Virus record (IMG/VR): IMGVR_UViG_3300030708_002673 | Location: 1 to 64,000 of that record | Reading direction: 5' to 3' (one strand) | Source: a virus | Lineage: Duplodnaviria; Caudoviricetes | Length of the DNA stretch: 64,000 nt | In this document: piece after piece, positions 17,255-27,145 of the stretch | Layout of the letters: each line of letters starts with the position of its first letter | How positions within the stretch are numbered: the stretch's first letter is position 1 | Program-made: the position numbers and the translations under genes | Notes under the pieces: generated by a model | What the model was told of the DNA's origin: nothing | The model's input: the letters and a program-made list of their open reading frames with translations, nothing else | The model's database searches: none

Positions 17255-17278
17255 ACACGTTACAAAATGTAATGAACA

Positions 17279-17392
17279 CCCCGCAAACCGAGACCTCTAG
17301 GGTGTCTAAAGCACGTCTCTCATACCTCACCTGGAGGGTAGGTGAGGAATATTTTTTCAGTGTTCCCCGCACTATTACATAACCCTTTTTCA
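17279..17392 (+). ncRNA. Structured psbA 5' leader, probably PhotoRC-II-type motif
   Basis: GAGAC(17290-94)/GTCTC(17315-19) stem enclosing a GTGT/GCAC hairpin, then CCTCACCT(17325-32)/AGGTGAGG(17340-47); family name from recall only. Confidence 0.6.
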
Positions 17393-24905: not shown

Positions 24906-25355
24906 ATGGCAAAACTTCCTAACAATCCACTGGTCTCCGAACTGTTCAAAGCAGTGCACGGTGCTAAGACTGTGGATAAGAAGGTTGAACTACTGGAATC
25001 TCATAAACGGGATGACGTAAAGGCAATCCTTATCTGGAACTTTGATAAGGGTATCAAGTCTGCCATCCCTGAGGGTGACGTTCCTTACAAGAAGAACGAA
25101 TCACCTGCTGGTACTGATGGACACACCCGTCTGGTGCATGAGTGGCGGTCACTGTATAACTTTATCCGTGGCGGCAACGATAAGATCTCTCAGATGCGTC
25201 GGGAGACCCTGCTGATTCAACTGTTGGAGTCACTCCATGCTGATGAGGCAGAGATTGTTACCCTGGTCAAGGATGGTGAACTGCAAAGCAAGTATCGCAT
25301 CACTCGTAGTGTTGTAGAGAAAGCATACCCAGAGATCCACTGGCGTGATAAGTGA
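24906..25355 (+). CDS. Conserved T4-like cyanophage protein (DUF6433-like)
   Basis: LVSELF..V..AKT, ILIWNFD, PEGDVPY, LLESLHADEAE. Confidence 0.75.
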   Translation: MAKLPNNPLVSELFKAVHGAKTVDKKVELLESHKRDDVKAILIWNFDKGIKSAIPEGDVPYKKNESPAGTDGHTRLVHEWRSLYNFIRGGNDKISQMRRETLLIQLLESLHADEAEIVTLVKDGELQSKYRITRSVVEKAYPEIHWRDK

Positions 25356-26464
25356 AGTTTCTCATTGATCTAACAGATCATTGCAACTCCAAGTGTCCTC
25401 TGTGTGCCAGACATAAGACATCATATAACGATGAGGTTGCGGTGCTCGCACCCGATCCATCAATGAACCTGTCAAAGATTTCACTTGAACAGTGGAAGAC
25501 ATGGTTCCCACAAGAGACCCTTGAGAAGACAGAGTTGATCTACTTCCAAGGGTCTTTTGGTGAGCCAACATTATGTGATGATCTGCTTGAGATATATGCC
25601 TACACCCTGAAGTCCAACCCCAACATCGTCTTCCAGATGAGTACCAATGGTGGTACCCGTGACGATGCATTCTGGGGAAGACTTGGTGCTCTCATGGGAG
25701 CATCACACAAAGATAGTTTCCTCATCTTTTCTATTGATGGTCTAGAAGATACCCTGCAGCAATACCGTGTGGGTGTGGACTATAAGAAGGTGATGCAGAG
25801 TGCTAAAGCATTCATCAAGGCAGGTGGTCCTGCTGTGTGGAGGATGCTGGTCTTCAAGCACAACCAACATCAGATACAAAGATGTAAAACATTGAGCAAA
25901 CTATGGAAGTTCAAAGACTTCCAACACACTCGTGTCAATGATATGTATGACGCTAGTGGACGTGGAGACGGTAAGTTTACGTATTCCTACAGGGATAAGG
26001 TGCACACCCTGCAGGTAGCAGATGATCCCAACCAAACGTACCGTCCAGACCCTGTAGCAGAGGACTCAGAGGTCGTGTGTCGCTATGGTCATACCAAAGG
26101 TAGTCCTGGGCAACTGAGGATCGATAGTAGGGGTGTGGTGCACGCCTGCTGCTTCCACCAGTCACGTCTCAGGTTCTTCTACCCTGGATATTATATTGAC
26201 AATAACCCTGATGCACCTGCGGTCTTCCGTGACATCAACAACCCGAACAAGGGAGTGGGTGCAGAGTATATGCAGAAGGTCTTCTGGGACAACGTGATTC
26301 CCTTGATTGAGGAGCAGGGTGGTATCAAATCCATCTCCTTAGAGCACCACTCATTACATGATGTGTTGCAGACTCCCTTTTTCCAACATACTCTGGTAGA
26401 ATCGTGGAGTAATAGACCGCACATCTGTGCAGACTATTGCGGTAAGAAAAGATGTATCCGTTGA
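25352..26464 (+). CDS. Radical SAM protein with C-terminal Cys cluster (SPASM/twitch-like)
   Basis: CNSKCPLC (CxxxCxxC), FQGSFGEP, STNGG, SIDGL, ACC, ICADYCG. Confidence 0.9.
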   Translation: MKFLIDLTDHCNSKCPLCARHKTSYNDEVAVLAPDPSMNLSKISLEQWKTWFPQETLEKTELIYFQGSFGEPTLCDDLLEIYAYTLKSNPNIVFQMSTNGGTRDDAFWGRLGALMGASHKDSFLIFSIDGLEDTLQQYRVGVDYKKVMQSAKAFIKAGGPAVWRMLVFKHNQHQIQRCKTLSKLWKFKDFQHTRVNDMYDASGRGDGKFTYSYRDKVHTLQVADDPNQTYRPDPVAEDSEVVCRYGHTKGSPGQLRIDSRGVVHACCFHQSRLRFFYPGYYIDNNPDAPAVFRDINNPNKGVGAEYMQKVFWDNVIPLIEEQGGIKSISLEHHSLHDVLQTPFFQHTLVESWSNRPHICADYCGKKRCIR

Positions 26465-26468
26465 TACA
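26453..26468. promoter_or_regulatory. NtcA-binding palindrome overlapping a -35 box
   Basis: TGTA-TCCGTTGA-TACA fits TGTA-N8-TACA, with 6-bp arms TGTATC/GATACA. Confidence 0.7.
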
Positions 26469-26488
26469 GTTTTCCTTTTCTATATAAT
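26461..26488 (+). promoter_or_regulatory. Sigma70 promoter of the riboswitch unit
   Basis: TTGATA(26461-66)-N16-TATAAT(26483-88). Confidence 0.75.
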
Positions 26489-26503
26489 ACTACATCATGA
26501 AAT

Positions 26504-26724
26504 CGTTCATCCCTTCGGGGACGCAAGTAAGTCGCGGAACGGAGCGTTCATCCCATGATTGATCTTCTTCTCTACACGGGCATGCTTTGCACTGACGCTG
26601 AGGACATAATCCGACGTGCCAGTACACATGATGCCATTAGTGCAGCAGTTCAAGCTGAGGTGGTAGCGACCGTAAAGGAAGCAACGCCTGAGTGCAATTG
26701 GGACGCAAACGACTGAAGGAACGG
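26504..26724 (+). ncRNA. Doubled glutamine riboswitch (glnA/Downstream-peptide type) with an ORF inside a loop
   Basis: P1 CGUUC/GAACG, P2 UCCC-UUCG-GGGA, CGCA, E-loop AGUA...GAA, P3 AGUCG(26530-34)/CGACU(26710-14); second CGUUCA-UCCCA...UGGGA-CGCA core inside. Confidence 0.85.
26555..26716 (+). CDS. 53-aa peptide encoded within the riboswitch loop
   Basis: GGAG at 26541-44; MIDLLLYTGMLCTDAEDIIRRASTHDAISAAVQAEVVATVKEATPECNWDAND*. Confidence 0.7.
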   Translation: MIDLLLYTGMLCTDAEDIIRRASTHDAISAAVQAEVVATVKEATPECNWDAND

Positions 26725-26756
26725 GGCAAAAATCCCATTCTTTTAGGAGACCTACC

Positions 26757-26921
26757 ATGAACACACTGAAGATGATCCGCCGCCAGATCGAGAAGGCAGC
26801 TGCCCTTCACGATGCACAGATCACTCACACTGCTTACCGTGGTGTGAAGTATGAGTGCAAGCAACCCATTGAGGAAGCTCATGGGAACTTCTGCTATCGC
26901 GGACGGACCTACACCAAGTGA
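26757..26921 (+). CDS. DUF4278-like small protein (54 aa)
   Basis: AGGAGA RBS at 26745-50; two YRG motifs (AYRGVKY, CYRGRTY); position downstream of a glutamine riboswitch. Confidence 0.8.
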   Translation: MNTLKMIRRQIEKAAALHDAQITHTAYRGVKYECKQPIEEAHGNFCYRGRTYTK

Positions 26922-26947
26922 TGAGGTTGTAACAATCTCATATAAGT

Positions 26948-26975
26948 AAGGGAAGGTTTGACACCTTCCCTTTTC
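26948..26975 (+). terminator. Rho-independent terminator closing the riboswitch unit
   Basis: AAGGGAAGGT-TTGAC-ACCTTCCCTT then TTC. Confidence 0.85.
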
Positions 26976-26986
26976 TGTTTTATAAT
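26958..26986 (+). promoter_or_regulatory. Consensus sigma70 promoter of the thyX operon
   Basis: TTGACA(26958-63)-N17-TATAAT(26981-86); -35 lies in the terminator loop. Confidence 0.85.
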
Positions 26987-26992
26987 AAGACC

Positions 26993-27145
26993 ATGGAACG
27001 AGACAAACTCAAACTAATCGTTTCCGACTTGGAAATGCTGCTTAGTGCCCTCAAAGCAGAGGTCTACTCAGATGTAGAAGCGTATCGCTTCGATCAGATT
27101 GACCCTGTTGAAATTGATTACGACGAAACTTACGAAGGTCCATGA
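26993..27145 (+). CDS. Small acidic hypothetical protein (50 aa)
   Basis: MERDKLKLIVSDLEMLLSALKAEVYSD...; ATGA overlap with thyX. Confidence 0.75.
   Translation: MERDKLKLIVSDLEMLLSALKAEVYSDVEAYRFDQIDPVEIDYDETYEGP

Follow-up and report, generated by a model that had tools for sequence, protein, structure and literature searches.

Riboswitch aptamers are usually treated as compact, non-coding domains lying upstream of the genes they control, and a short region in the genome of a T4-like cyanomyophage raises the question of what kind of sensor is encoded when a protein gene lies within the RNA fold itself. The region occupies positions 26453–26982 of a 64,000 nucleotide (nt) stretch of viral DNA (IMG/VR record IMGVR_UViG_3300030708_002673, positions 1 to 64,000), referred to here as the window, and a PhotoRC-II RNA at 17264–17360 (+ strand; 75.3 bits, cut-off 39) marks the cyanomyophage origin of this DNA. 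An initial annotation described a self-contained unit made up of an NtcA box, a promoter, a glutamine aptamer, two small open reading frames (ORF1 and ORF2) and a terminator. The reading we favor, with a probability of about 0.65, is that of a mobile early-gene cassette of T4-like cyanophages, carrying an NtcA-type operator and a nested glutamine-riboswitch-class RNA that encloses ORF1 and controls ORF2.

Two of these elements are weak when taken by themselves, the palindrome being at chance level and the RNA family scores below threshold, so the case rests on comparison with related phages. Sequence similarity to positions 26400–27000 is found in 426 phage records, nearly all of them Synechococcus, Prochlorococcus or other cyanophages by name. 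A protein-based scan for ORF2 and a DNA-pattern scan of viral contigs gave a set of 200 loci (numbered with the prefix L), of which 154 have a unique RNA region. The initial annotation had asked for a synteny survey, and its claim of a self-contained unit held up: the order promoter, RNA, ORF1, ORF2 is kept in the 154 unique phage loci.

Two Interlocked Glutamine-Riboswitch-Class Cores

In nearly all loci, half-sites alternate regularly along the RNA region: a CGUUCA-type 5' half precedes a 3' half of the ACGCA...GGAACGG type, and another 5' and another 3' half follow in the same order. The aptamer-like fold noted in the initial annotation is present at 26502–26545, but it is not a single aptamer. 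It belongs to a nested double core whose second part had been missed, being split around ORF1, with its 5' half (26545–54) directly before the AUG codon and its 3' half (26699–26723) over the last codons and the stop codon. The complete RNA extends from 26504 to 26723 on the plus strand, and its structure was derived from pair counts in the 154 unique loci, an alignment of 100 sequences (A1) and the Rfam alignment of a compact relative, L012. From the outside inwards, the outer P1 helix (26504–08 with 26719–23) encloses the P2a hairpin (26510–13 with 26518–21), stem variants of which retain pairing in relatives, then J2/3 (CGCAAGUA, 26522–29, nearly invariant in A1) and a P3 helix (26530–34 with 26710–14) that is common to both cores and spans the inner one. 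The inner core consists of a P1 hairpin with a GAG loop (26537–41 with 26545–49), the P2b helix that encloses ORF1 (26551–55 with 26699–703), and the junction CGCAAA (26704–09), and the outer core is completed by J3/1, GAAG, at 26715–18.

The nesting follows from which halves pair with which. At the variable pair of the outer P1, joining the first 5' half to the last 3' half, the 154 loci show C-G in 144 and U-A in 5, and the variable pair of the inner P1 is G-C in 140 and C-G in 14, with no mismatches. Joining each 5' half to its nearest 3' half instead gives 15–18 mismatches in the same loci. These counts favor first-with-last pairing, and the cores are therefore nested and not side by side. 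Within A1, the outer P1 is 100% paired (variable pair C-G 95, U-A 5), the nested structure as a whole has 99.2% of its cells paired, and nine pairs are changed on both sides, a number reached in none of 500 shuffles. The other two helices covary as well. P3, AGUCG/CGACU in the window, occurs among the 154 loci as AGUCA/UGACU and AGACU/AGUCU together with G-U intermediates, and in P2b four of the five pairs are changed on both sides (e.g., UCCC/GGGA, UCCU/AGGA and CCCC/GGGG). On a tree inferred from the ORF1 columns alone, the outer-P1 change, whose two sides are about 220 nt apart, requires at least two events, while the inner-P1 state is scattered over the tree, with at least six changes forced by well-supported branches.

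Two ordinary tandem aptamers, each with its own P1 and with ORF1 tolerated as a long insert in the P2 loop of the second, would be the conventional description of such a region. The Rfam model does align 26502–26545 as a small stand-alone aptamer, a review treats 157 doublets and 4 triplets of this class as tandem units (PMC9481103), and the P2a and P2b pairings are identical in the two models. What separates them is P1 and P3. Beyond the mismatches counted above, the tandem structure leaves 13 and 14 of the A1 sequences unpaired and uncompensated at its sole variable P1 pair, where the nested structure leaves none; neither tandem aptamer obtains a P3, yet the P3 strands show compensatory changes; and the Rfam model scores the nested alignment of L012 higher (37.8 bits). 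On these pair counts the side-by-side arrangement was rejected, and we regard it as unlikely. A purely permuted unit, in which the P2 strands of neighboring halves would be paired, was also set aside, since P2 complementarity, judged by eye, follows a–a and b–b and not a–b.

The class of the RNA is indicated by its junctions. Type-1 (glnA-type) glutamine aptamers have the consensus junctions ACGGAAGUA and GAAGG (E-loop) flanking P3, and both are present at the window RNA, as ACGCAAGUA at 26521–29 (one G-to-C difference) and GAAGG at 26715–19, both of which vary little or not at all in A1. In the inner junction, made up of CGCAAA and one C, the AGUA/GAA E-loop of type-1 aptamers is missing. Searches with the Rfam glnA and Downstream-peptide models, which had been proposed as a check, found matches to both at 26502–26545, but at scores under the respective cut-offs: 28.9 bits for Glutamine (cut-off 35) and 25.9 bits for Glutamine-II (cut-off 33), with E values of about 4e-4 in a search of 801 nt. 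A scan of the whole window at gathering thresholds gave no Rfam match at the cassette. The window falls below the Glutamine cut-off because an insert of about 175 nt, comprising the inner core and ORF1, separates the strands of P3. In L012, as in L013, the halves of the second core are adjacent and ORF1 is absent, and the Rfam model aligns the outer aptamer of L012 with a 40 nt insert in P3 at a score that passes the cut-off. L012 is the only one of ten related loci to do so, and the nine others fall below it, as the window does.

Genes within the Loops

ORF1 (26555–26716, + strand; 53 amino acids (aa); phrog_504) lies in the P2b loop. The initial annotation had placed two small genes after the riboswitch; both are present, but ORF1 sits within the RNA, and to call it a downstream target would be too simple. 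The A of the ORF1 AUG takes part in the fifth and last pair of P2b, and the UGA stop codon (26714–16) runs from the final base of P3 into J3/1. At least one base of the start codon is paired in all 146 of 146 loci. The frame is open in 147 of the 154 unique loci, with 49–66 codons, and ends at the same RNA position in 140 of those 147. Differences at the three codon positions (0.36, 0.16 and 0.48) follow a coding pattern and, together with the open frame, mark ORF1 as a genuine gene; in deposited genomes it is entered as a hypothetical protein. Its conserved residues are two cysteines and a C-terminal W-D-A-N-D, and an AlphaFold model has three helices (predicted local distance difference test score, pLDDT, 77) with no fold match at E ≤ 0.001. 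The family search returned only phrog_504, which carries no functional annotation, and the protein atlas returned unnamed phage clusters.

The contents of the loops are modular: some loops are empty, and others hold ORF0, ORF1 or a member of a different ORF family. Roughly one third of loci have ORF0 (phrog_6471), a gene of about 65 aa, in a stretch of about 212 nt that parts the first two halves, and P2a encloses this gene in L004 (e.g., L004:1016–1229), L006, L008, L024 and about 45 others. The ORF0 AUG pairs with bases just before the ORF0 stop codon, as UCUCAUG/CAUGAGA or UCUUAUG/CAUAAGA, and in 34 of 44 loci the start codon is fully paired in P2a. L048 has one aptamer, with a loop of about 330 nt that contains ORF0 plus additional sequence. 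In L018, L021, L049, L067 and others, ORF1 is replaced in the P2b loop by a family of proteins of about 64 aa that start with MLSL and end in D-A-H-D-stop or stop within P2b. The two unrelated loop proteins thus share a D-A-N/H-D C-terminus, because their last codons are at the same time the RNA core.

Proposed Translational Control of ORF2

Between the nested RNA and ORF2, the minimum-free-energy fold reveals a sequestor helix (26713–26746, + strand), which covariation also supports. It is formed by CUGAAGGAA (26713–21) and UUCUUUUAG (26738–46) and is stacked on P4 (26723–26 with 26733–36). Its 5' strand is made up of the end of P3, J3/1 and the 3' strand of the outer P1, and the last two bases of its 3' strand are at the same time the first two of the ORF2 ribosome-binding site, AGGAG (26745–26749), which lies 7 nt before the AUG and is nearly invariant in related loci. 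The sequestor helix and the aptamer are mutually exclusive, and in the nearest-neighbor model enforcing the aptamer costs about 10 kcal/mol. In an alignment of 96 relatives with this short platform (A4), the six core sequestor pairs are 99.3% paired, and the variable pair is G-C in 42, A-U in 29, G-U in 25 and unpaired in none. Over 131 loci the same pair is G/C in 62, G/U in 39, A/U in 30 and A/C in none, where about 14 A/C would be expected if the sides were independent. This pair doubles as the second base of the ORF1 stop codon. A layout of this kind fits a glutamine ON switch, as has been shown for the host gifB leader (PMC6212724), and by analogy ORF2 would be switched on here.

About 30 loci carry a longer platform (e.g., L004:1418–1500), with AAACGGAUCC, a variable hairpin and GAGAAGGUUAA between the P4 arms. 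The conserved insert of this variant has no Rfam family match at cut-off. A separate complementarity exists between the predicted 5' end of the RNA, UCAUG (26495–26499), and CAUGA at the start of ORF2 (26756–26760); the two are paired in the minimum-free-energy fold, possibly by coincidence.

The Promoter and the NtcA-Type Box

The promoter elements described initially are all in place. A sigma-70-type (early) promoter with 11 of 12 consensus matches lies at 26461–26488 on the plus strand (−35 TTGATA at 26461–66, a 16 nt spacer, and −10 TATAAT at 26483–88), and from its position transcription is predicted to start at about 26495. The palindrome over its −35 box, TGTATC-N4-GATACA, occupies 26453–26468, has no strand assigned, and fits TGTA-N8-TACA with a GTA-N8-TAC core at 26454–67; it also includes the stop codon of the upstream radical-SAM (S-adenosylmethionine) gene. 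It contains CGTTGAT (26458–26464), which is similar to the aptamer 5' half-site and may be so by coincidence. Promoters with at least 10 of 12 matches occur in 114 of 146 related loci, where the −10 box is mostly 7–8 nt before the RNA, compared with 15 nt here.

One TGTA-N8-TACA per 64 kb equals the chance expectation, and the significance of the box comes from its recurrence. Of 148 unique upstream regions, 88 (59%) have GTA-N8-TAC, with a variable N8, at a distance of 50–61 nt before the RNA, an enrichment of more than 100-fold over the background of 0.37 per kb elsewhere in the loci. The recurring box is a conserved site, probably for NtcA, and sites for this regulator have been reported in cyanomyophages (Sullivan et al. 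2010, PMC3037559). We considered that the palindrome might instead serve another dimeric factor, or act here as a weak terminator of the radical-SAM gene. Chance predicts its occurrence in any such window, its 6 bp arms precede a U-rich stretch and overlap the upstream stop codon, and its spacing from the promoter is neither that of a canonical activator at −41.5 nor that of a repressor at a fixed position across relatives. Recurrence of the motif within a narrow range of positions, with the N8 free to vary, is however the pattern of a protein-binding site; most relatives have no U-run behind the box; and NtcA sites are documented at host IF17-like genes (PMC6212724) as well as in cyanomyophages. 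A role other than NtcA binding is thus doubtful, though it retains appreciable weight.

Whether NtcA would repress or activate is less easily read from the positions. The initial annotation assumed repression from a box over the −35 hexamer, and this geometry, with the box centered at −34.5 and overlapping core promoter elements as a repressor site would, stands for the window and its close relative L002 but for no others of the 78 loci in which the box could be placed. In the remaining 76, the box is mostly upstream of a near-consensus −35, with its center at about −50.5 (48 loci) or −45 (17 loci) from the predicted start. The canonical NtcA activator arrangement (−41.5, a TAN3T-type −10 and no −35) is likewise absent, since a near-consensus −35 accompanies the box both in the window and in the relatives at −50.5 or −45. 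Repression by NtcA is plausible for the present phage but is not established for the phage family, in which the window's geometry is atypical.

The simplest version of the unit would be a plain two-gene operon of ORF1 and ORF2, switched on by a single aptamer at about 26502–26545, with NtcA repressing the promoter. All of the listed parts exist, the box does overlap the −35 hexamer in this phage, and host gifB is regulated in such a fashion (PMC6212724). This version leaves aside the conserved half-sites at 26545–54 and 26699–26723 and their long-range compensatory changes, it gives the conserved sequestor helix before ORF2 no role, and the promoter geometry it relies on is found in only two of the 78 placed loci. 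We consider it very unlikely.

ORF2 and the Terminator

ORF2 (26757–26921, + strand; 54 aa), initially described as a YRG-motif gene, has two such motifs and belongs to phrog_545 (3.4e-31). It is DUF4278-like (IF17-like), with a score against Pfam DUF4278 (PF14105) of 22.5 bits (E = 1.5e-4), which is below the curated cut-off of 25.3. Of 40 relatives, 29 match DUF4278 at E ≤ 0.01, the best of them at 5.5e-6, and Y27-R28-G29 and Y47-R48-G49 are invariant in all 40. For some relatives in the database, PF14105 is among the precomputed matches. The 336 ORF2-related clusters are named only in phage records, as hypothetical proteins. A comparison with solved structures found no homologue, giving only kringle-domain matches at chance level, and the AlphaFold model is weak (pLDDT 69). 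By analogy with IF17, ORF2 might act on glutamine synthetase; the initial suggestion that small effectors are made only in nitrogen-replete hosts, perhaps to tune this enzyme, is conjectural.

The predicted intrinsic terminator (26948–26982, + strand) has a 10 bp stem and a 5 nt loop, the hairpin being at 26948–26972 and followed by a T-run. By a strict test, a hairpin and T-run occur within 110 nt of the ORF2 stop codon in 76 of 146 unique loci. The terminator loop and 3' arm hold the −35 box of a perfect consensus promoter (TTGACA, 17 nt, TATAAT; 26958–86) that serves the next small gene, 26993–27145 (phrog_878). The overlap of terminator and promoter at 26948–26993 resembles the promoter-stem-loop junctions of T4-type phages.

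A Mobile Cassette

In the window, the cassette is flanked upstream by the radical-SAM gene (25352–26464) and downstream by a small ORF and then thyX. Other phages have different neighbors, namely nrdB and talC in S-SM1, and a SAM decarboxylase gene and thyX in S-H9-2. These differences point to mobility, and the comparison as a whole supports the view of the unit as a self-contained, conserved, mobile phage cassette. Two minus-strand ORFs (85 and 81 aa) and a plus-strand frame of 42 aa at 26430–26558 had no family match and were treated as spurious for this reason.

Another explanation takes the half-sites as recombination or shuffling junctions, akin to the promoter-stem-loop junctions of T4-type phages, of a mobile cassette that senses nothing and expresses its small genes constitutively and early. 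The changing neighbors in S-SM1, S-H9-2 and the window, the modular loop contents and the scattered inner-P1 state on the ORF1 tree would all agree with this. Against it, the half-sites contain the core nucleotides that are invariant in a validated riboswitch class, the helices stay paired through two-sided changes even when the sides are 220 nt apart, and the RNA core forces a D-A-N/H-D C-terminus on two unrelated loop proteins. We hold this explanation to be highly improbable.

Proposed Mechanism

In the favored model, that of a nested sensor enclosing ORF1, transcription would start from the strong sigma-70-type promoter with its NtcA-type operator, and the leader and first gene would form one large glutamine-riboswitch-class RNA. 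The outer core would be a type-1 (glnA-type) aptamer, the common P3 would span a second, circularly permuted inner core, and the P2 helix of this inner core would close around ORF1. From homology with its class, the RNA is expected to bind glutamine. When glutamine is absent, the 3' side of the aptamer would pair with the pyrimidine tract and the start of the ribosome-binding site, and ORF2 would be poorly translated; when glutamine is present, the nested aptamer would close, the ribosome-binding site would be freed, and ORF2 would be made. Since P2b and P3 contain the start and stop codons of ORF1, translation of ORF1 and folding of the sensor should exclude each other on one RNA molecule, an exclusion that would couple ORF1 output to ORF2 control. 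We tentatively suggest, at somewhat less than even odds, that P2b and P3 are opened by ribosomes moving along ORF1, which on reaching the stop codon would also mask J3/1 and the outer P1, so that the RNA merges translation and glutamine into the ratio of ORF1 to ORF2; the idea extends to ORF0 in relatives. If true, ribosome and ligand would both read the sensor, a form of control that was not found for any riboswitch class in the literature searched.

Several observations weigh against the model. The Rfam scores of the window RNA lie below the gathering cut-off. Each P1 has one variable pair, so the choice between nested and side-by-side cores rests on few positions, and the sides of the inner P1 are only 13 nt apart and may co-travel by recombination. 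The folding stability of 26495–26775 is no greater than that of shuffled sequences (z = −0.79), and the minimum-free-energy fold of this segment does not recover the aptamer. The inner core, for want of the E-loop, may not bind a second glutamine, and the sequestor helix covers only two of the five bases of the ribosome-binding site. The position of the box relative to the promoter is not conserved. In Synechocystis, IF17 binds glutamine synthetase through residues that Prochlorococcus IF17-like proteins lack (PMC6212724). In the present phage, the transcript, its ligand binding and the binding of NtcA are predictions from sequence.

Comparison with Known Systems

Much of the background to this cassette is already published: glutamine riboswitches and NtcA sites are on record for cyanophages, and both the host circuit and tandem glutamine aptamers have been described. 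In cyanobacteria, that circuit consists of NtcA, a glutamine ON switch and IF17, and was described without mention of phages (Klahn et al. 2018, PMC6212724). The phage cassette appears to mirror it: the gifB (IF17) leader of Synechocystis sp. PCC 6803 and the IF17-like genes of marine picocyanobacteria share with the phage an NtcA-type box at the promoter, a glutamine-riboswitch-class leader expected to switch translation on, and a small DUF4278 or DUF4278-like protein as the product under control. The host leaders, however, are single aptamers with an ordinary short P3, as in two marine Synechococcus chromosomes (L232:1501–1576 and L235:1501–1576) where they lie upstream of a gene with repeated YRG motifs, whereas in the phage RNA the span of P3 takes in a second core and P2b encloses a protein gene. 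ORF2 of the phage is short and scores just under the Pfam cut-off, and the position of the phage box is unlike that of host repressor sites.

Glutamine-I, or the glnA RNA motif (RF01739; Weinberg et al. 2010, PMC2864571), has been listed in T4-like cyanophages (PMC2864571, PMC9964418, PMC9602691). The phage RNA resembles it in its core (CGUUCA, P2, ACG(G/C)AAGUA, P3, GAAGGAACG), in its place in a 5' leader and in its occurrence in cyanophages, and differs in having about 175 nt between the P3 strands, so that its Rfam score is that of a truncated reading, and in a C in J2/3 where the consensus has G. The tandem doublets (Weinberg 2010; Sherlock et al. 2022, PMC9481103) likewise have two glutamine-type cores in one leader. 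Published accounts present them as separate, pseudo-cooperative units with an expression platform apiece, while in the phage RNA the P1 strands cross over, the first pairing with the last and the second with the third, and there is a single shared P3 and a single expression platform. Glutamine-II (Downstream-peptide, RF01704) has the pattern CGUUCA...GGG-CGCA...GGAACG in common with the phage RNA, lacks an E-loop as the inner core does, and is associated with short YRG (DUF4278) peptides. In the host motif, P1 is closed by a pseudoknot inside a 3' hairpin; in the inner core of the phage, P1 has a 3 nt loop and P3 is open.

The type-1 model (RF01739) gave at least one match in 40 of 46 marine Synechococcus genomes, above the cut-off in 15 and up to about 40 bits. 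One of the genomes with an above-cut-off match also has four Glutamine-II copies, a co-occurrence that contrasts with the statement that the two types never occur together (PMC6212724). The exact phage-type junction was found in assemblies labeled as cellular only on phage-like or apparently mis-binned contigs, the other 17 of 24 matches being at the level of chance. Contigs with this junction include L218 (a Nonlabens xiamenensis isolate), L219 and L224 (a Euryarchaeota metagenome-assembled genome, MAG), L212 (a Verrucomicrobiales MAG) and L205 (194 kb, a Synechococcus MAG), and these are most likely mis-binned or contaminant cyanophage contigs.

In the literature searched, which did not include Ames and Breaker (2011), we found no account of this phage cassette, its nested fold or a gene placed inside an aptamer. 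The circuit logic is that of the host, but the sensor architecture, with nested cores and a gene within P2, appears to be undescribed.

Implications

A validated riboswitch class is here rebuilt as two interlocked cores around a translated gene, in a layout common to hundreds of viruses that are abundant in the ocean. Most copies escape standard Rfam scans, only one of the ten loci having passed, and many glutamine riboswitches that were published as tandem may therefore be nested units. Should the fold sense glutamine, these phages would read the nitrogen status of the host directly through RNA, and perhaps also through the host's NtcA, and would respond with IF17-like peptides, whose possible target in the infected cell is glutamine synthetase. 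The cassette thereby bears on how cyanophages manage nitrogen, a long-standing question in the ecology of marine viruses.

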